Positions 7,938-28,446 of a stretch of DNA of 32,000 nt are shown here, piece by piece (position 1 is the first letter of the stretch; each line of letters opens with the position of its first letter). The notes beneath the pieces were generated by a model, which was given only the letters and a program-made list of their open reading frames with translations, had not been told where the DNA came from and made no database searches. The DNA comes from Thermodesulfobacteriota bacterium. Lineage in GTDB: Bacteria > Desulfobacterota > WTBG01 > JAGOGO01. The stretch is from assembly GCA_026625185.1 (NCBI GenBank), contig CP113000.1:2982651-3014650 (forward strand), written 5' to 3'. A program made the translations under genes and the position numbers.

Positions 7938-8428
7938 ACTACACCTCCTGTGTTTTAATGGTTGTGCCGCCGCCTTATTCATCCCCAGTCTGGATTTATG
8001 GATTCATAAACACCCCAGCCTGAGTCCTAAGGCGTGAGAAATATATTTAAAATTTTAATTATTATAAACGCTTTTTGAAAAAAAACAAGTCTTGATTTTA
8101 AATCTCTTTACAAAATAGGTGGTTAGCATTTTCCATCACGGTTCAAAGAATTTTTTTTAATAACATGGTCAAAAATAATTTGCAAGGAAAATTACAGCGA
8201 TTTTTTTCTGCAATAATCTTTTTCTCTTCTATCTTTTTTTATTCTTAACTTCTGTTTTGTCAGTGTATCGTTGGGTAAAAATCCTTTTAACACGCTTTTT
8301 TTGTTGACTTTTCTCCTCCAGAGGTTAAAAAAAATAAAAAAATATCAACCCAAAAAAGATAAGTAACAAAAAGGAACAGGTTTTCTTTGATGGAAAGAAT
8401 TTTTAAGACTAATGAGAATATAAAATAG

Positions 8429-8470
8429 GGCCAACTCGCCGGATATAAAGGCGATAGGCCTTTTTTATTT
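8429..8470 (+). terminator. Rho-independent-terminator-like hairpin plus T tract; first block of repeat module copy 1
   Basis: GGCCAACTCGCC-GGATATAA-GGCGATAGGCC is followed by TTTTTTATTTT. A collinear covarying counterpart lies at 25103-25140. Confidence 0.55.
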
Positions 8471-8760
8471 TCAAAAACTAGTCCCCTCTCGAATAGGGGT
8501 GGCGCGAAGCGCCGGGGTGTGTTAAATCCATTCTTGAGAGGGGTGTCACAAAGTGACGGGGTGTGTAAGAATGGGGTTTGCGTTTTTAAGAAATATGATA
8601 GTGGTGTTATATTGATCCATACAAGACACCGGTATAAATTAAATATACTATATTAACAATCTGTTAGGTAGTATTCCTAAAGTTGTTTTTAGGTTTCTTA
8701 TATTGCAAAACTTCTATTTTGCGTCTTATACGGATCAATATAATCATTGTTGCCTTGTAA
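8429..8760 (+). repeat. Composite repeat module, copy 1 (hairpin/T tract, two GGGGT-hairpin-GGGGTGTGTAA units, 19-nt TTATATTGATCCRTAYAAG motifs)
   Basis: Blocks are collinear with 25103-25340. Motif copies lie at 8607-8625 (+), 8725-8743 (inverted) and 8696-8704 (partial). TATATTAACAAT..GTTAGG lies at 8649-8668. Confidence 0.8.
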
Positions 8761-8776
8761 GATGGATTGACCATTG

Positions 8777-8814
8777 TTGACATATGAAGCCTATACACGT
8801 ATATTATACGTATA
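8777..8814 (+). promoter_or_regulatory. sigma70-like promoter with overlapping operator-like palindrome for the antitoxin/mazF pair
   Basis: TTGACA (8777-8782), a 17-nt spacer and TATATT (8800-8805). The palindrome ACGTATA-T-TATACGT overlaps the -10. AGGAGG lies 6 nt before the ATG at 8826. Confidence 0.6.
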
Positions 8815-8825
8815 GGAGGTGTGCT

Positions 8826-9056
8826 ATGCAAAAAAAGTTGACCATTACTATCGACGAAGAGGTTTATGAGGGGCTTTATAAGAATATTGGCCCTCGGAAA
8901 ATCAGCAGGTATATTCAAGAAGTTGTCCGTCCGCTTGTCATTCGCCCAAACCTTGATTCAGCTTACGCCGAAATGGCAAAAGATAAAAGACGGGAAAAGG
9001 AAACGGAAGAATGGGCTGAGATAACCTTTTTGGATGTGGCACATGAAACGCTCTGA
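8826..9056 (+). CDS. type II antitoxin, ribbon-helix-helix type, partner of MazF/PemK
   Basis: 76 aa starting MQKKLTITIDEEVYEGL (RHH beta-strand pattern), with an acidic C-terminus. Strong SD. It overlaps the downstream mazF start. The ORF-track start at 8784 lacks an SD. Confidence 0.75.
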   Translation: MQKKLTITIDEEVYEGLYKNIGPRKISRYIQEVVRPLVIRPNLDSAYAEMAKDKRREKETEEWAEITFLDVAHETL

Positions 9057-9366
9057 GGTGTGGTGGGTTAATTTTGATCCCTCAGTCCGAGGAGAAATCC
9101 GGAAGAAGCGTCCTGCCGTGATTATTAGTAATGACTCCTCAAACAAGTTCCTTAATATAGTTCAGGTTGTTCCTCTAACCGGCAAAACAGAACGCCTCTA
9201 TCCCAGCGAGGCCTTGGTGGTTTTTGAAGGAAAAGAAAGTAAAGCAATGGCGGATCAATTAGCCACCGTCAGCAAGATGCGACTCTTTAAACGGGCAGGA
9301 ATTCTTTCAGCCAAAGACATGCAACGAATTGAAGAGGCTGTTAAAATACAACTCGATATTGCCTAA
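9043..9366 (+). CDS. mazF: MazF/PemK-family mRNA interferase toxin
   Basis: MKRSEVWWVNFDPSVRGEIRKKRPAVIISND...VVPLT is the MazF/PemK signature. The start could be 9034 or 9043, and either overlaps the antitoxin stop. Confidence 0.88.
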   Translation: MKRSEVWWVNFDPSVRGEIRKKRPAVIISNDSSNKFLNIVQVVPLTGKTERLYPSEALVVFEGKESKAMADQLATVSKMRLFKRAGILSAKDMQRIEEAVKIQLDIA

Positions 9367-9369
9367 AAC

Positions 9370-9462
9370 GGCCAACAGGACGCGGCAAAACGGCGTGCCG
9401 CGTTCGCTTAGCTCGTCGATGGCGCGAAGGCTCCGAGCTCGATGTGAAAATTCCTGTTGACA
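9370..9462 (+). other. attC-like imperfect palindrome following mazF
   Basis: Outer inverted repeat CAACAGG (9374-9380) / CCTGTTG (9453-9459). AAC and GTT sit at the boundary positions (GGCCAAC ... GTTGACA). Internal stems are ACGCGGCA/TGCCGCGT and AGCTCG/CGAGCT. It starts 4 nt after the mazF stop and is locally G+C-rich. Confidence 0.4.
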
Positions 9463-9485
9463 GTAACGGTCGCCAAAGTTATACT
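9457..9485 (+). promoter_or_regulatory. sigma70-like promoter for phd-relE
   Basis: TTGACA (9457-9462), a 17-nt spacer and TATACT (9480-9485). AGGAG lies 7 nt before the ATG at 9515. Confidence 0.6.
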
Positions 9486-9514
9486 AAAGGGTAACTTTTT
9501 AAAAGGAGATAGAT

Positions 9515-9790
9515 ATGCGTTTTGCGGGCATAAAAGAACTAAAACAAGAAACCATGGACCTTATAAAAGAATCTAAACAGAATGATATTTTCATCACCTC
9601 CTACGGAAAGCCGGTAGCCGTCCTCCACCATATTACTGAAGATGATCTTGCCGATTATCTGATTGAAAATGATCCGGAGTTTAAAAGCCGGATCGAGGAA
9701 GCGTTTGCCGACTACACCGCCAAAGGCGGTATAACCGCAGAGACCATGATAAAGAAATTAAAAAAACGCAGTGGAACCAAAAAAGTTTAA
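9515..9790 (+). CDS. Phd/YefM-family type II antitoxin
   Basis: 91 aa. IKELKQETMDLIKESKQNDIFITSYGKPVAVL is the Phd/YefM N-terminal fold pattern. It overlaps the downstream toxin gene by 20 nt. Confidence 0.85.
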   Translation: MRFAGIKELKQETMDLIKESKQNDIFITSYGKPVAVLHHITEDDLADYLIENDPEFKSRIEEAFADYTAKGGITAETMIKKLKKRSGTKKV

Positions 9791-10064
9791 CATTGTCTTT
9801 GCCGGTTCTGCCCAGCGGGACTTAGAGCGCTTCGAGGCTGAGACTGCTTTACAGGTGGTGAAGGATATTAAATCCCACTTGGAAACCTCCCCCCTCGGAT
9901 TTAGGAAAACCAGGATAAAAAAATTAACCGGCTTCTCCCCGCCTCTTTACCGCCTTCGAAGCGGTGACTTTCGCGCGTATTATCGCATCCTCGCTCATAA
10001 GGTTATTATTCTAACGATCACCCATAAAAAAGACAGCGAAAAATTTTTAAAAAAGGTGAAATGA
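9771..10064 (+). CDS. relE: RelE/ParE-family type II toxin
   Basis: 97 aa with a GTG start. YRLRSGDFRAYYRI...VIILTITHKKD is the RelE/ParE C-terminal signature. Confidence 0.85.
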   Translation: MEPKKFNIVFAGSAQRDLERFEAETALQVVKDIKSHLETSPLGFRKTRIKKLTGFSPPLYRLRSGDFRAYYRILAHKVIILTITHKKDSEKFLKKVK

Positions 10065-10083
10065 CCTCTTTTCTCTAATTGTA

Positions 10084-10214
10084 GAGACTGTGTCGTAATC
10101 CAAAAATTGTGGGTAGCCGCAGCCTTTAGGCTGCGTAACATATTGAAATTACATATCCGAGAAGCGCAAGCTAAAAGCTTGCGGCTACCAAAGGGTTTAT
10201 TATTTCACAGTCTC
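10084..10214. repeat. 131-bp compound palindrome (MITE-like or long attC-like element)
   Basis: Terminal inverted repeats GAGACTGTG-nnn-TAAT (10084-10099) and ATTA-nnn-CACAGTCTC (10199-10214). Inside are two inverted subunits, GTAGCCGCAGCCTTTAGGCTGCG and CGCAAGCTAAAAGCTTGCGGCTAC, each itself a hairpin. Confidence 0.7.
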
Positions 10215-10791
10215 ATGGCCTCACTTATGGATGGCGCTGGTTTGCGTTTAATGGAATGCCTGCGGCTCCGGGTGCAGGATGTTGACTTTGGACGAAACGA
10301 GATTACCGTCCGGGACGGGAAAGGTTTTCAGGACCGAGTGACGATCCTGCCTGAATCACTCAAAAAACCCCTTCAGGATTACCTGCGAAAGGTTAAGGCG
10401 ATTCACGAAAAGGATTTGTCCGCTGGTTTGGGGCGCGTGCAAATGCCCTACGCGCTTGATCGCAAGTACCCGCACGCCCCGCTGGCAGTTGGTATTTCCC
10501 CAGGAAAAGAGGTGGAAAAACACTAAAACAGGGCAGGAAGGGCGTCACCATGTTCATGAAACCATTCTGCAAAGAGCAGTGAGGGAAGCAGTCAAAAAAG
10601 CTGATATCGTTAAGCACATTGGTTGTCACACTTTCCGCCATTCATTTGCGACTCATCTTCTGGAAAACGGTTATGACATACTAACAATTCAGAAATTATT
10701 GGGACACAAAGAAGATAGCACAACAATGATTTATACACACGTTTTGAGCAAAGGCGGGCATGGGGTTCGGAGTCCAATTGACGAGCTTTAA
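10212..10791 (+). pseudogene. intI: integron integrase (IntI, tyrosine recombinase) remnant: 5'-truncated and frameshifted
   Basis: LMASLMDGAGLRLMECLRLRVQDVDFGRNEITVRDGKG is followed by the IntI-specific insertion [10 protein letters not shown] / RWQLVFP, then [19 protein letters not shown] and [14 protein letters not shown]. Roughly 130 N-terminal residues are missing. The frame changes near 10470-10485, within GCCCCGC. Confidence 0.85.
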
Positions 10792-10948
10792 CCGGCTTAT
10801 ACAGTCTGTATAAGACCGGAGCTATCAAAACAACAAAATGGTTTAACAATATAATATTATATGATATTTATAATTTATTAGAAAAAATCGAAAACGTCTT
10901 ATACAGAAAGCAACAGTCTGTGTTTGCTGTATTATACAGACTGTATAA
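10792..10948 (+). promoter_or_regulatory. palindrome-rich AT-rich spacer (attI-like or operator region)
   Basis: CCGG-CTTATACAGTCTGTATAAG-(A)CCGG at 10792-10819, half site CGTCTTATACAG at 10895-10906, and TTATACAGACTGTATAA at 10932-10948. Confidence 0.45.
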
Positions 10949-10989
10949 TCAGTGTTGGGCGTCTCGGAATAGGGTAAGGGAAACGAAAC

Positions 10990-11397
10990 ATGACAATAAT
11001 GGACATGATTTGGGTAGCAGTAGCGTCGCTGCTTCATCCGATAACGACAGAATCAACAACAGTGACACGTGGCCAGATTGAATCACAAGTGTTAGAGCTA
11101 TTTGGCACGTCAATTACACCAGTGATGATTGAGAAACACTTGGTCAGTTTCGAGGATCGACAAGCTGATAAAGCAAATCCACGACGCGGCGGCAGTCGAA
11201 ATCGCTACCTATTCCGGACAGAGAATGGGAGAACTCCATCGCGTCAAGGCAGGTTTCGTCTCTATAAACAGGCTGATTCAACACATGACGGATGGGAGAA
11301 AACTGGCCCTACGCATCCTGAGCCCAGTGCCATCGAGCCAGAATACCGACCGCTTATAGAATGGTACAAAGCTCAATATGCGGATGCAGTTGGTTAA
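10990..11397 (+). CDS. hypothetical protein (cassette-like ORF, function unknown)
   Basis: 135-aa ORF between the intI remnant and an attC site. No motif I can name with confidence. G+C is higher than in the flanks. Confidence 0.6.
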   Translation: MTIMDMIWVAVASLLHPITTESTTVTRGQIESQVLELFGTSITPVMIEKHLVSFEDRQADKANPRRGGSRNRYLFRTENGRTPSRQGRFRLYKQADSTHDGWEKTGPTHPEPSAIEPEYRPLIEWYKAQYADAVG

Positions 11398-11412
11398 TTC
11401 TTATGGATTTTA

Positions 11413-11496
11413 CGCCCAACAAACGCTTCGAGAGGGACGCTCCAACAGCCGGCTTCGCCGCCTGTTTCCGCGCCCCTCAAGCTTAACGTTGGCGCG
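11413..11496 (+). other. integron attC recombination site (VCR-like)
   Basis: R'' GCCCAAC (11414-11420, fits RYYYAAC) is followed by AAACGCTTCGAGAGGGAC. On the other arm, CCCCTCAAGC-TTAAC precedes R' GTTGGCG (11488-11494). The arms pair imperfectly with unpaired bases. The site starts 16 nt after the ORF stop. Confidence 0.75.
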
Positions 11497-11577
11497 GACA
11501 TTTCACACCGAACTATTGCATCTCCACGAAGAAAATGATTGTTGAAAAACAACCCGTGACAAACACGTTGTTTAACT

Positions 11578-11614
11578 AAAGGACACTCCAATTTTGTGAG
11601 TGTCCTTTTTTATT
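11578..11614 (+). terminator. Rho-independent terminator
   Basis: GGACACTC-CAATTTTGT-GAGTGTCC followed by TTTTTTATT. Confidence 0.8.
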
Positions 11615-11743
11615 CTGCGACCGTGTAGACGTAAAATAAAAAATAAGATAAAGTAACAATAAAATGGAGAAAATTTCATAAAAAATATTTAAAGATTCAG
11701 CTTTCTTAAGCGCAATCACACACTATTTTCCTGCACCGGTGCC

Positions 11744-12847
11744 ATGAAAAATTCAGACCAAAGCCTTCCCGGACTTTATATCCATGTTCCCTTTTGTAAA
11801 AGCAAATGTCCTTATTGTGATTTTTATTCAATAACCTCTTTATCATTAATCCCTGCCTGGCTGTCCGGAATTAAAAAAGAAGTTCTTATCTATAAAGATC
11901 GCTTTGGGTATTTTGATTCCCTTTACCTTGGCGGCGGCACACCCACGATCATCAGTGAACCGGATTTAATTCATTTAGTTGACTATCTTTTTACCCATTT
12001 TTATTTTTCTCCAGATTCAGAGATTTCTATCGAAGCCAATCCTGACGACATTACACAGGAAAAACTAAAATTATTACGCAACCTGGGAATAAATCGGATC
12101 AGCCTCGGTGCGCAGTCTTTTAATGATTACGACCTTCTTTATCTAAGCCGAAGGCATACGGTTTTGCAAACCAGGAGAGTTATAGAAATGATAAGGTCGG
12201 CGGGATTTACCAACCTAGGAATTGATCTTATGTATGGACTCAATGGCCAAACCGAAACCGATTGGTGCAAAACACTGGAAAGCGCGGTTGACTATAAACC
12301 AGAACACATTTCCTGCTATCAATTAACCATAAAAAAAGGAACACCATTTAAACAAAAAAAATTTAAACCCCTCAATGAATCAAAAGAGCGATCACTATTC
12401 ATGAGTACTTCTGCGTTGCTCGAGCAAGCGGGCTACCTTCATTATGAAGTTTCAAATTTTGCAAGAGAAGAAAAGTATATATGCCGCCACAATGCCAAGT
12501 ATTGGAACCATACACCTTATTTAGGGCTTGGTCCGTCAGCGCATTCTTTTTCCCCTAACCAACGCTGGTGGAATGTTAAATCCCTAAATAAATATTGTGA
12601 GTTACTCCAGAAAAATAGGCCACCTCGCGCAGGTACTGAATCGCTTACGGAAGAACAACTCCAGCTCGAATATCTTTGTTTAGGACTGAGGACCAGTGCG
12701 GGAATAGATCGCCGCTTTCTGAATAACCTATCCGCGTTAAAAGAGCTAACGGATGCAAAATTAGTGAGTATTAAAGGTGGGCGGGTAGTTCCAACCCGAG
12801 AGGGCTTCCTTTTTGCCGATAGTATCCCTCTTCTCCTTTCAGAATAA
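11744..12847 (+). CDS. hemW: radical SAM heme chaperone HemW (HemN-like, coproporphyrinogen oxidase family)
   Basis: GLYIHVPFCKSKCPYCDFYS (CxxxCxxC), then YLGGGTP and RISLGAQSF motifs. 367 aa. Confidence 0.9.
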   Translation: MKNSDQSLPGLYIHVPFCKSKCPYCDFYSITSLSLIPAWLSGIKKEVLIYKDRFGYFDSLYLGGGTPTIISEPDLIHLVDYLFTHFYFSPDSEISIEANPDDITQEKLKLLRNLGINRISLGAQSFNDYDLLYLSRRHTVLQTRRVIEMIRSAGFTNLGIDLMYGLNGQTETDWCKTLESAVDYKPEHISCYQLTIKKGTPFKQKKFKPLNESKERSLFMSTSALLEQAGYLHYEVSNFAREEKYICRHNAKYWNHTPYLGLGPSAHSFSPNQRWWNVKSLNKYCELLQKNRPPRAGTESLTEEQLQLEYLCLGLRTSAGIDRRFLNNLSALKELTDAKLVSIKGGRVVPTREGFLFADSIPLLLSE

Positions 12848-24966: not shown

Positions 24967-25102
24967 CTATTCAATTTTTTTTATCATATAAACAAGGTGA
25001 AGTATTTTCCCAAGAAATAAAAAACCCAACCCGGGAATTTAGGTTAAAAAAATGTTTTAAAATTTAAGGAAAAAATATTTAATTTACCGTACAAATAAGA
25101 AA

Positions 25103-25140
25103 GCCAAATCACCTGATTTGAAGGTGATGGCCTTTTTTGT
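25103..25140 (+). terminator. Rho-independent-terminator-like hairpin plus T tract; first block of repeat module copy 2
   Basis: GCCAAATCACC-TGATTTGA-AGGTGATGGCC followed by TTTTTTGTTTTG. It is collinear with 8429-8470, and the stem changes are compensatory. Confidence 0.55.
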
Positions 25141-25340
25141 TTTGTGCCGAGATCCGGGATGCATAAAAATTAATCCCCTCTTTGAGAGGGGTATCACCAC
25201 GTGAAGGGGTGTGTAAAGTTCCGGGGTATTATATTGATCCATATAAGAATATTTAAAATAGATTATATTAACAATAGTTAGGTTTCTTATACGGATTAGG
25301 CAACCAATTTGGGGCCTTATATTGATCCGTATAATAACTG
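25103..25340 (+). repeat. Composite repeat module, copy 2
   Basis: One CCCCTCT/AGAGGGG hairpin plus a GGGGT-ATCAC-CAC-GTGAA-GGGGTGTGTAAA unit (25175-25216). 19-nt motifs at 25229-25247 and 25316-25334, with a partial inverted copy at 25286-25296. TATATTAACAAT-AGTTAGG at 25264-25282. Confidence 0.8.
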
Positions 25341-25376
25341 TTCTACGTAACAAATATAAATTAAGACAATACAAAG

Positions 25377-26570
25377 ATGATCAATTACTCAGCTTTTATA
25401 AACGAATTCTCAGAACACTGCCCTTTCGAGGCGTTCTATGAAAAAGGCATTACTTCAGACGATATAAAAGCAGCCATACTCAAGACTTTTGAACCCTATT
25501 TTGAAAACCAGGAACGACTAAAAGAATATTCCATGCTATGGCTAATCGGTGGTTGGGTTAACTTTTCCAAATTTAAGACAAATCAATGGCACTTTGATAA
25601 ATTTGAAAAATGCCTGGCTTTTCTGAATCAGGCGAAGAAACAAAATGTGCCGTGCTGTAACATTGTTGCCGAGTGGCTTCCAGAATTTAACAGAGGTCTT
25701 TCAAAATTCTGGAGCTTCAGAAAATTGTCTAAGGATTTGGAAGAATTAGATAACGAAGAGTTCTTAGAAGAGAGTTTAAAGCTGATTGGTCAAATTACAG
25801 AAGGCATAACGAAAGCATACCTCAGATGCCTGCTGCATATAAGCAGAGTTTCAAGGGGGCAGCAGGTTAGCAAACAGACGATTATAAATCTTGATTTGGG
25901 CATTGTTGTTGATGAATTAATCAGAAACACCAGTTTTCCCGAATTGTTTTCGCCCCCACCGTGGAACATTAAATTAAGCCAGTGGCGAAATATTGCATAT
26001 CATCATAATGCAAAACTCGAAAACGATAATTTTCTTTGCTGGTAGGGGAAAGATCCGAATATAAGGACATGCACGCTTAGCCGAAATGAACTACTTGAGG
26101 CAGTGCGGTCCATTTTCAACATCTATAACGTCTTTCTAAATGTTGAACTAGTTTATGTCTTTGACAACTTGCCTGAATACCAAGCTGCACTCACTGCCGC
26201 TGGGATAGCAGACACTAGTTTACGAGAGGAAGCAAGTATTCTCGACCTTTTCGCTGGCATAAATTCTCAAGGCTTCAAAATTATCGACTTTTCTAAAGAT
26301 GACACTGGCTGCAAATTGACAGTTCAAGATATGACTGACGGAGATATCAAGAGGCGCGCAATTCATTCGTCACAGTTTCTATATTCGTTGTGGTTCTATA
26401 CTCAATCGCCACAACTGAGTGTTGAGTACAGACTGAAAAATGGACAATCCTATCTAATTTCCAGGACAAATAAAGACGTTTGTGAAAAGATTGGTAATAA
26501 CGAACGCGGTATAGAGTATCTTGCGGAAAAAGTCGAATTCAAATTTATAAATAATGATACAAAAACGTAG
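25377..26570 (+). pseudogene. 397-codon reading frame with a HEPN-like Rx4H motif, interrupted by one in-frame TAG (26043-26045)
   Basis: The ORFs at 25377..26045 and 26103..26570 share one frame (26103-25377=726). Only the TAG separates them, and the second ORF has no ATG or SD. RNIAYH lies at codons 204-209 (25986-26003). Confidence 0.6.
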
Positions 26571-26650
26571 AACAATCAAATCCACTGGACAGCGAATAGC
26601 CGCTTTTTTGAATTCAATAGCCGGTTGCCGCTGCCAGTGATTTGTTCCGT
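26567..26650 (+). other. attC-like 84-bp imperfect palindrome overlapping the ORF stop codon
   Basis: GTAGAAC (26567-26573) faces GTTCCGT (26644-26650). Pairing blocks are AACAA/TTGTT, ATC/GAT, CACTGG/CCAGTG and CAGCG/CGCTG, with unpaired bases. Same length as the attC at 11413-11496. Confidence 0.45.
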
Positions 26651-26922
26651 TACGAGAAAATAAAATTGTTGATTTTCAATAACGTTCCAAGCTATTCATT
26701 CGATCATAAAAAATGATTAACTACCACAATGATTCTATTAAACGATAGGTTCAAAGCAAATACCTTGGAGGGAAAAACATGGAAGAAATTAACGCCTTCA
26801 TTAAGTTTGCGAATGAAAATAAATCGCGCTGCTAAAAAAAGCTAAAAAATCCATTAAACTTCTCGAGGCAATCAGACAGCGAGAAGTTGTAACCCAACTG
26901 TATTTCAGGTCGGAGCATACTT

Positions 26923-27414
26923 ATGACAAATAACGATATTTTGCGCCGTATCCGCTTCACCTTCGACTTTAACGACTCGAAAATGATCGCTCTCTTTGGA
27001 CTGGCTGATTATCAGGTAACTCGGTCGCAGATCACCGATTGGTTAAAAAAAGAGGATGATCCAGCGTATCAAAAATGCAGCGACACGCAGCTGGCAATTT
27101 TTCTCAATGGCTTAATTATCAACCGACGGGGCAAAAAAGAAGGACCACAACCCGAACCGGAGAAGCGTTTAACGAACAACACCATTTTCATGAAATTAAA
27201 AATCGCATTAAACCTGAAATCCGAAGATGTATTGGAGATTATGGACCTGGCTAATTTCCACATGAGCAAACCCGAATTAAGCGCGTTTTTTCGCAGGCCG
27301 GATCATAAACACTACCGTGACTGTAACGATCAAATTTTACGTAATTTTCTAAAAGGCATACAGCTAAAATATCGCGCCCCCATTCAAATGAAAGAAGCAC
27401 CCAAAAAGAAGTAG
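26923..27414 (+). CDS. DUF1456-family protein (YehS-like)
   Basis: 163 aa made of two repeats of the NDILRRIRF / IFMKLKIALNL type. Overall resemblance to E. coli YehS, judged from memory. Confidence 0.7.
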   Translation: MTNNDILRRIRFTFDFNDSKMIALFGLADYQVTRSQITDWLKKEDDPAYQKCSDTQLAIFLNGLIINRRGKKEGPQPEPEKRLTNNTIFMKLKIALNLKSEDVLEIMDLANFHMSKPELSAFFRRPDHKHYRDCNDQILRNFLKGIQLKYRAPIQMKEAPKKK

Positions 27415-27467
27415 TTGATAACCGACGTCAGACAAAAATACCGAACCATACTCCTCGTGAGTTTAAG

Positions 27468-28301
27468 ATGATAGAAATTGGGCGATTCAATACATTAAAA
27501 ATTTTAAAGCAAACAAGCTCTGGTTTGTCTTTAGGAGATAAATCCGGTGAAGAGGTGCTTCTCCCCGATAAATATTGCCCAGAGAGTTTTAAGATAAAAG
27601 ATAAACTTGAGGTTTTTGTTTATCGCGACAATGAGGGGCAAAAAATAGCCACGAACTTAACCCCCAAGCTACATTTACATGAATTCGCTTTATTACAGGT
27701 TACCGCAATTACCGATGTTGGAGCATTTTTGGATTGGGGGATGGGAAAGGACCTTTTTGTTCCCTTCAAGGAACAAAAACAAAGAATGAAAAAAGGAAGG
27801 TGGTATATCGTTTATCTGGATCTGGACACAAAAACAGAGAGACTTTATGCCAGTAGCAGGATTGAAAAACATCTGAGCAATGACCAATTAACGATAAAGG
27901 AAAAACAAGAAGTTTCGTTGCTGGTAGTGCGAAAAACAGATCTTGGCTATACGGTAATCGTAAACAACCGGCACAATGGAATACTCTATAATAACGAAAT
28001 ATTCAGAGAGCTCGACATTGGAGAAAAATTAAACGGGTTTGTGAAGAAAATTCGTGAAGACAATAAAATTGATATTTCGCTTCAAGCAAGCGGGTACAAA
28101 AATGTTATTGATAAAAACATTGAGATGATTTATCGCGCCTTAGTAGAAAACAAGGGATTTTTGGAATTTACCGATAAAAGCTCTCCTAATGAAATATATT
28201 TAAAGTTCGGCATGAGCAAAAAGGCGTTTAAAAAAACAATAGGAGCTTTATTAAAACAAAAAAAAATAACAATCGAGCCCAATGGGATTAAATTGATTTA
28301 A
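27468..28301 (+). CDS. cvfB: S1-like RNA-binding protein, CvfB/YitL family
   Basis: 277 aa. GAFLDWGMGKDLFVPFKEQ and repeated S1-like segments, with a C-terminal winged-helix-like tail. Confidence 0.75.
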   Translation: MIEIGRFNTLKILKQTSSGLSLGDKSGEEVLLPDKYCPESFKIKDKLEVFVYRDNEGQKIATNLTPKLHLHEFALLQVTAITDVGAFLDWGMGKDLFVPFKEQKQRMKKGRWYIVYLDLDTKTERLYASSRIEKHLSNDQLTIKEKQEVSLLVVRKTDLGYTVIVNNRHNGILYNNEIFRELDIGEKLNGFVKKIREDNKIDISLQASGYKNVIDKNIEMIYRALVENKGFLEFTDKSSPNEIYLKFGMSKKAFKKTIGALLKQKKITIEPNGIKLI

Positions 28302-28446
28302 AGGAATATACGTTTCGGCCATCTTCGAATAGCTTCTCAAAAACTGTTTGCAATCAGCCGCCAGAAGTAGGAAAATAACCAACCAAAAATGTTTCAGGTC
28401 TGGAAGACGCACGACGCGCAGCGCATGGTAAGACCCGAGAGAAAAT

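Follow-up and report, generated by a model that had tools for sequence, protein, structure and literature searches.

What kind of element keeps its G-rich flanks constant while the short stem between them changes sequence and still pairs? The stretch of DNA analysed here, a window of 32,000 nucleotides within a single 3.30-Mb contig of a Thermodesulfobacteriota bacterium (44% G+C), carries three such units on its plus strand. The initial annotation had read them from the letters alone as conserved flanks around a covarying stem, and its placement of the three is borne out, with AGGGGT at 8495, 8539 and 25187 and GGGGTGTGT present in each. We find that the units are an old and widespread selfish DNA repeat of the BoxC, or 'triplex motif', kind, in a variant that carries an extra mini-hairpin. 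What is new is the hairpin-linker subfamily itself, with its strong covariation and its DNA-type loops.

Each unit follows the general order CCCCTCT, a loop, AGAGGGG, a single T, a 5-bp mini-hairpin (H2) and GGGGTGTGT. The intact unit 1 (8483-8522 in window positions), delimited by the unit scan, the DNA fold and the triplex-rule scan, comprises a pyrimidine (Y) arm CCCCTCT at 8483-8489, a loop at 8490-8492, a purine (R) arm ATAGGGG with one mismatch at 8493-8499, the T at 8500, the H2 GGCGC-GAA-GCGCC at 8501-8513, which contains GCGAAGC, and the third segment GGGGTGTGT at 8514-8522. Unit 2 (8527-8566) is a tandem copy 44 nt 3′ of unit 1 with a decayed Y arm (TCCATTCT, 8527-8534), followed by the R arm AGAGGGG (8537-8543), the T (8544), the H2 GTCAC-AAA-GTGAC (8545-8557) and the third segment GGGGTGTGT (8558-8566). 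In unit 3 (25175-25214) the Y arm CCCCTCT (25175-25181), a TTG loop, the R arm AGAGGGG (25185-25191) and the T (25192) precede a decayed H2, ATCAC-CAC-GTGAA with an A-A mismatch (25193-25205), and the third segment GGGGTGTGT (25206-25214); here Y arm, R arm and third segment give seven perfect triplets. The pairing of the C arm CCCCTCT with the first G tract in units 1 and 3 had been overlooked by the initial annotation. Allowing up to one mismatch, GGGGTGTGT occurs 9 times in the window against 3.5 expected, a number reached in none of 100 shuffles.

The stems GGCGC/GCGCC and GTCAC/GTGAC differ at two pairs and both sides are changed in each, so the reported exchange of stem sequence with pairing kept holds good. 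Folded as single-stranded DNA with ViennaRNA, a model in which triplets are not represented, units 1 and 3 form two hairpins each (−9.9 kcal/mol, z −2.3, and −10.4 kcal/mol, z −3.4, respectively), and unit 2 retains H2 alone (z −0.25). An 8-bp inverted repeat, CCATTCTT / AAGAATGG, brackets unit 2 at 8529-8536 and 8567-8574 and forms an outer stem in the DNA fold of 8480-8580. TAAGAAT is also found 3′ of the unit at two other loci of this genome; this sequence and the inverted repeat around unit 2 may be due to chance or may represent an extended unit end. The initial annotation had proposed a search of Rfam, which returned no family: the whole window gave 0 matches at the gathering score, and a permissive search of 7980-8830 gave sub-threshold, chance-level matches at most, none of them credible.

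The pattern CCCCTC-N2-8-AGGGGT-N11-15-GGGGTGTGT, searched in one genome per species, was found in at least 119 DNA stretches from many phyla, where about 10 chance matches would be expected by our own arithmetic estimate. Its hosts include Verrucomicrobiota, Bacteroidota, Pelosinus, Ignavibacteria, Nitrospinota, Cloacimonadota, Aminicenantes, anammox bacteria, Thermotogae and archaeal MAGs, among others. The genome of the window (G000) holds about ten H2-bearing copies at nine loci, several of them decayed; two congeners hold 10 (G003) and 4 (G002), a family-level relative (G006) holds 1, and a reversed control pattern gives 0-1 matches per genome.

The 159 matches among those listed contain 83 distinct linkers, or 89 when the copies of the genus are added. 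Among the matches listed, almost all linkers are hairpins of 4-6 bp whose sequence is very varied, with stems such as GCCC/GGGC, GGCC/GGCC, GTCC/GGAC, GGTGC/GCACC, ACCGC/GCGGT and GCCAC/GTGGC, and also 9-bp stems that are AT-rich or GC-rich. With stem pairs numbered from the outside, pair 4 is Watson-Crick in 100% of the 89 linkers from the matches listed and the genus (CG 34, GC 31, AT 20, TA 4), against a mean of 41.5% and a maximum of 57% in shuffles. Pair 2 in the same 89 linkers is CG in 27, GC in 22 and TA in 14, with a recurrent G-A. The statistical test of covariation on an alignment of homologues, which the initial annotation had called for, bears out the pairing: in the 40 distinct 13-nt linkers among the matches listed, 93.5% of cells are paired compared with 78% after shuffling, a share reached in none of 500 shuffles, covariation scores 0.449 compared with 0.160, and both sides change in four of the five pairs, slid controls being 18-50% paired. 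At the family level these comparisons strongly confirm that the H2 stem is selected for pairing and not for its sequence, and in this the original reading is upheld. The genus alone has two stem types, GTCAC/GTGAC and GGCGC/GCGCC, plus broken variants, so covariation measured there would amount to one event only. In other phyla GGCGC/GCGCC is frequent among the matches listed, and the two H2 alleles of the window represent separate lineages of a family that has spread horizontally, not the product of a local compensatory event.

Two further features of this spread were observed. A 42.5-kb phage-like contig (IMG/VR UViG 3300028193_000001) carries four units on one strand, and two other UViGs also matched. 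The H2 stems of the phage-like contig co-vary as well (GTGGC/GCCAC, ACGGC/GCCGT, GCGGC/GCCGT), their loops are TTTA, TTCA or TTTG, and a TTTT run follows three of the four copies; the unit-bearing stretches of these UViGs are devoid of a DUF559 gene. The units of Verrucomicrobiota are mostly arranged as close doublets in which a minus copy precedes a plus copy (28 of 43 close pairs); the first hairpins are then neighbours and the third strands face outward, whereas the cassette ends described below face inward. These could be REPIN-like doublets or junctions between neighbouring cassettes.

The constant blocks around H2 obey a rule of their own. The rule used in our scan asks for three blocks on one strand: a pyrimidine arm, a purine arm that is its Watson-Crick complement, and a third segment that repeats the purine arm in mirror order, with G kept as G and A either kept or replaced by T. 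Unit 3 satisfies it in 7 of 7 triplets and unit 1 with one mismatch; unit 2, with its decayed Y arm, fails. GGGGTGT is the exact antiparallel G/T partner of AGAGGGG, that is, its mirror image with G to G and A to T. The G tracts are therefore not neutral flanks; they serve as purine arm and mirror-image third strand in a motif that follows the rule of the BoxC/PIT/TM, or class II intrastrand-triplex, repeats (Holder et al. 2015; PMC4666352). The same Y/R/mirror-R motif lies at 21 of 22 left flanks and 22 of 22 right flanks of the DUF559 loci of this class, and in about 1 of 22 shuffled flanks. Across the repeat types of these 22 loci the purine arm and the third segment change together, as in AAAGGGGGA with AGGGGGATT, GGGAGGGA with AGGGAGGG and AGGAGGGG with GGGGAGGT.

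BoxC/PIT/TM repeats have been known since the 1990s and are linked to genome instability; to our knowledge, neither a function nor a partner enzyme has been assigned to them. At the 22 DUF559 loci all other repeat lineages have a second loop of 2-5 nt, and H2 occurs in the CCCCTCT/AGAGGGG/GGGGTGT lineage only. Loop 2 of the window units measures 14 nt (the T plus the 13-nt hairpin), and it measures 12-16 nt in 163 of the 172 listed units. This exceeds the short loops (1-6 or 0-10 nt) looked for in BoxC/PIT/TM repeats, but the loop pairs with itself and leaves an unpaired connection of about 1 nt, and we therefore treat the H2 units as a variant and not as canonical members. The initial annotation had considered that the units might match a known repeat family with no structural conservation; the kind of repeat is indeed known, but its structure is conserved. 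Published searches for triplex motifs allowed loops of 1-6 nt (ITxF; PMC4666352) or 0-10 nt (Hoyne et al., as quoted in PMC4666352), and because of these limits they would miss the H2 units, a widespread subfamily.

A nuclease gene accompanies some of the units. In G002 and G006 a unit lies 3-5 nt 5′ of the start codon of a DUF559 gene (PF04480, a Vsr-like nuclease), and the 3′ end of the gene is itself an inverted unit, ACACACCCC-TGA-CCCCTCTCAAGAGGGG, translated as ...HTPDPSQEGN. Inverted units bracket the DUF559 gene at G002:C55, G002:C7, G003:C227, G003:C147 (a pseudogene) and G006:C93, and the same layout of unit, gene and inverted unit is found at loci of Bacteroidota and Verrucomicrobiota. 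The ends of a cassette often differ, either because a short linker at one end contrasts with H2 at the opposite end or because each end has its own H2 allele; at G002:C7 and G003:C227 the inverted right end has H2 and the left end a 5-nt linker, and one Chitinophaga cassette has a long AT-rich hairpin in its left linker. Elsewhere in G003 about 25 nt separate a unit from an inverted partial unit behind it, an arrangement that resembles an emptied cassette. Among the matches listed, 852 kb of unit-bearing loci from other genomes contain 7 DUF559 genes, 6 of which adjoin a unit in the cassette layout, and about 94% of the unit-bearing loci are free of a DUF559 gene.

In a maximum-likelihood tree the 8 DUF559 proteins beside GGGGTGTG-type units form one group, which spans this Thermodesulfobacteriota family, Verrucomicrobiota and Bacteroidota and is separate from DUF559 proteins that belong to the same class but adjoin other repeat types. 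The group is present in 82% of bootstrap trees and none of 500 label shuffles is as low; its support of 86/70 is moderate, and the loci were ascertained via the repeat itself. Taking all 8 labels, the tree shows 7 changes, which is the minimum, against 16.6 in shuffles. The DUF559 tree follows the repeat type and not the host, and nuclease and repeat travel together. Whether the nuclease acts on its repeat is a matter of inference from this association, and it may instead be a passenger.

In E. coli K-12 the DUF559 gene ycjD adjoins fabI, and a duplicated 3′ fragment of ycjD (GETVLENI...) lies downstream of it, followed by a canonical BoxC unit just upstream of fabI. The original BoxC report reportedly described the repeat beside envM/fabI. 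In the library searched we found no paper joining DUF559 with BoxC or triplex repeats.

The sole DUF559 gene of G000 (G000:C1:2145775-2146167) is a pseudogene interrupted by an in-frame TAA, and the repeats on either side of it belong to a different lineage of the triplex type, CTCCCCT/AGGGGAG with GGTGAGGGG. In a tblastn search its right-end peptide PHLNPLPSGERR matches more than 15 other places in the genome, and these matches suggest that the CTCCCCT/AGGGGAG lineage may have many solo copies there. Beside the units of the window, tblastn at E values up to 10 found no DUF559 remnants.

The immediate neighbourhood of the units contains two other repeats. A copy of a separate repeat family, which we call 'A', lies directly upstream of unit 1 on the same strand (8297-8471) and consists of a promoter-like TTGTTGACTT box, about 120 non-coding bases, and an intrinsic terminator made up of a hairpin (8429-8460) and a T run (8461-8466). 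A weaker A-like copy (25040-25138) precedes unit 3, its terminator GCCAAATCACC...GGTGATGGCC and the following T6 occupying 25103-25138 on the plus strand. Matches to A number at least 19 in G000 and about as many in the congeners; about 24 copies were collected, 23 of them aligned at the terminator. In the inner stem of the terminator, one pair is CG in 16, UG in 5 and UA in 3 of 24 copies in G000, and the next is GC in 11, GU in 7 and AU in 5. Covariation through G-U intermediates is typical of an RNA terminator. The claim that the upstream terminator covaries like the units is upheld by these copies, but the terminator belongs to a separate repeat family and is not part of the same structure. 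Small ORFs within A were dropped as candidates, their frames not being conserved among copies.

Downstream, and outside the unit, the 20-nt near-palindrome TTATATTGATCCrTAyAAGA is present twice in inverted orientation, at 8606-8626 and 8724-8744, and a second group lies at 25228-25248, 25287-25300 and 25318-25337. The near-palindrome TTATATTGATCCGTATAAGA (core TTATAnnGATCnnTATAA) has 55 matches in G000 when up to 4 substitutions are allowed, and looks like an operator or a cassette boundary. It is often found between an A terminator, 100-250 nt upstream, and small accessory genes. Direct arrays with a spacing of 350-1400 nt occur in G000 at 1.441 Mb and 2.199 Mb, and two other A copies have a related palindrome, CTTATACAGTCTGTATAAG, behind them.

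At each of the two window loci the units occupy the left edge of an accessory islet of about 3.5 kb. Units 1 and 2 are at the edge of islet 1 (8207-11767), which contains a MazF-family toxin with a small upstream ORF (mazEF-like), a phd/parE-like pair and a tyrosine-recombinase fragment (10107-10526), and which is replaced by about 165 unrelated bases in the congeners G001 and G002. Unit 3 is at the edge of islet 2 (24967-28438), with ORFs at 25377-26045 and 26103-26570 that have no Pfam match, a DUF1456 protein and a CvfB-like S1-domain protein; in place of this islet G003 has about 250 nt and G001 about 600 nt. The islet ends showed neither direct repeats nor att-like sites. At the four loci examined among congeners, a clean presence/absence site for a solo unit was not found; these loci lie in regions that have been replaced wholesale, so insertion boundaries and target duplications are not readable there. 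The position at islet edges fits the reported link of triplex motifs with rearranged loci, and causation is not implied. The copies in G000 are orphan relics at islet borders, lack a cognate nuclease and probably serve no host function.

The initial annotation had left open whether the folded molecule is RNA or single-stranded DNA, and several features favour the latter. The H2 loops among the matches listed are mostly GAA, GCA, GTA or GGA closed by C:G, and C-GNA-G occurs in 48 of 92 distinct linkers from the matches listed and the genus; in the window it is present in unit 1, as GCGAAGC, and not in units 2 and 3, whose loops are AAA and CAC. d(GNA) triloops form an exceptionally stable DNA mini-hairpin (PMC3201870), and d(GCGAAGC) melts at 76.5 °C compared with 39 °C for r(GCGAAAGC) (PMC13037366). 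Close inverted doublets account for 64 of the 172 listed units of other genomes and the ends of cassettes are inverted too, so that a transcript would carry one G-rich and one C-rich copy. On these grounds folded single-stranded DNA fits better than RNA, judging from the sequences, and the RNA half of the earlier proposal is disfavoured. The units might nevertheless act as structured RNA elements (a stabiliser, processing site, attenuator or small-RNA module), transcribed by read-through from A or as the leader of a downstream gene. Six of the nine unit loci in G000 do lie just 3′ of an A terminator on the same strand, which a DNA-repeat model does not predict; the pairing of the stem is conserved, as it would be in an RNA, and the one-stranded copies of the phage-like contig with their T runs point the same way. 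However, an upstream T run accompanies just 14 of the 172 listed units in other phyla, amounting to no association, and the window units come after a strong terminator and ahead of the next promoter. Together with the DNA-type loops, the inverted copies and the empty Rfam search, this makes the RNA account unlikely.

The recurrence of A, unit and palindrome in that order at four G000 loci, the islets absent from congeners and the recombinase fragment in islet 1 could also mean that the three repeats are one module, for example an insulator or a recombination site marking islet insertion. This we consider improbable, given that the parts are far commoner alone (A has about 24 copies, the palindrome 55 matches and the unit about ten copies), that A followed by the palindrome occurs without the unit and the unit in many phyla without A, and that the islet ends showed no direct repeats or att-like sites. 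If H2 were instead a palindromic operator, read as double-stranded GTCACnnnGTGAC by a dimeric DNA-binding protein, its symmetric changes would reflect two binding specificities, and the two stem types of the genus are what two operator classes would give. The dozens of stem sequences and lengths across phyla, the folding-specific bias towards GNA loops and the tolerance of G-T and G-A pairs indicate structure rather than sequence read-out and render an operator highly improbable. Least credible is the long-loop intramolecular G-quadruplex that had been offered as an alternative. Copy 1 does have five GGGG tracts on one strand within 82 nt, as had been noted, and Holder et al. concede that quadruplex formation by G-rich triplex motifs is possible in principle (PMC4666352). 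The five tracts, however, arise from the tandem duplication plus a GGGG at 8573-8576 that is outside the repeat; the conserved single unit has two, one of them complementary to its own CCCC, the linker is selected for a hairpin of its own, and NMR of TMECO favoured triplex over quadruplex (PMC4666352). A tRNA T-arm relic, a group II intron end, an integron attC site and an IS200/IS605 end were also considered and rejected, there being no matching genes or motifs nearby.

Starting from the three-block rule, the pairing of H2, the unit-gene-unit layout and the agreement of nuclease and repeat lineages observed here, we propose that the window units are probably non-autonomous, partly decayed copies of a pan-bacterial repeat of the BoxC/PIT/TM kind that acts as folded single-stranded DNA, with the DUF559 cassette as the autonomous form. 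The pyrimidine arm CCCCTCT and the purine arm AGAGGGG of one strand would form a hairpin, and the third segment GGGGTGT would lie antiparallel on the purine arm through G.G:C and T.A:T triplets. The second loop is replaced by a T and a mini-hairpin of 4-6 bp, usually GNA-capped, and H2 would thereby return the third segment to the base of the first hairpin. The autonomous form would be a small cassette of unit, DUF559 nuclease gene and inverted unit; the fold would form in cells, and its recognition or cleavage by the DUF559 nuclease would lead to the spread of cassettes and solo units. A wider proposal, which we offer only tentatively, is that the whole BoxC/TM class, as the hairpin-in-linker subfamily would reveal, might be selected for a folded single-stranded DNA shape, a hairpin plus a third strand braced by a highly stable mini-hairpin, which would be the substrate of a co-travelling DUF559 nuclease. 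DUF559 and TM would then make up a structure-guided mobile system comparable to Ssn/SRM and RAYT/REP, passed between phyla and present on at least one phage-like contig.

A freely co-varying second hairpin with DNA-specific GNA loops, placed exactly where the strand turns back, provides independent evidence of structure, and its position is hard to explain unless the folded single strand matters. For annotators, such units should be taken neither for riboswitch-like RNAs nor for G-quadruplex regulators, and they flag the borders of variable islets.

Among known systems, REP and REPIN elements with their RAYTs are similar in being short palindromic units dispersed in intergenic DNA, often as inverted doublets, and in framing one or a few enzyme genes. 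RAYTs are HUH Y1 transposases, REPs lack a mirror third segment, and the copy numbers of the H2 units are much lower. A DUF559 cassette has the unit on its left and an inverted copy on its right, the latter often translated as the tail of the protein, whereas the window has solo units only. The Ssn GIY-YIG nucleases with their NTS/SRM repeats (PMC11893778) likewise pair a small single-domain nuclease gene with flanking hairpin repeats, which are 20-50 nt long, have many solo copies and act as single-stranded DNA (Chenal et al. 2025; PMC11893778). The fold is GIY-YIG there and PD-(D/E)XK, Vsr-like, in DUF559; the SRM is a single hairpin with oriented flanks and no third mirror segment, and activity is proven for Ssn and not for DUF559.

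The DNA mini-hairpin d(GCGAAGC)/d(GNA) (PMC13037366, PMC3201870) is matched exactly by GCGAAGC in unit 1, but in the units the motif sits in a longer stem inside a repeat. The closest likeness is to BoxC/PIT/TM, which share the three one-strand blocks (a pyrimidine arm, a purine arm and its mirror copy, in which A may stand as A or T), the dispersed, mostly intergenic distribution in multiple copies on either strand, often as inverted pairs differing in loop 2, and the association with rearranged loci. For TMECO, Holder et al. 2015 demonstrated triplex folding in vitro and a link to rearranged loci, and an in-vivo footprint showed no clear protection (PMC4666352). The differing ends of the H2-unit cassettes recall the TMECO doublets, in which type A pairs with type B. 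In contrast to TMECO, with a loop 2 of 3 nt (TTA or CCG), the window lineage has a loop 2 of 12-16 nt with a hairpin of its own, and within BoxC/PIT/TM it is set apart by arms of just 6-7 nt and by its own sequence lineage, CCCCTCT/AGAGGGG/GGGGTGT.
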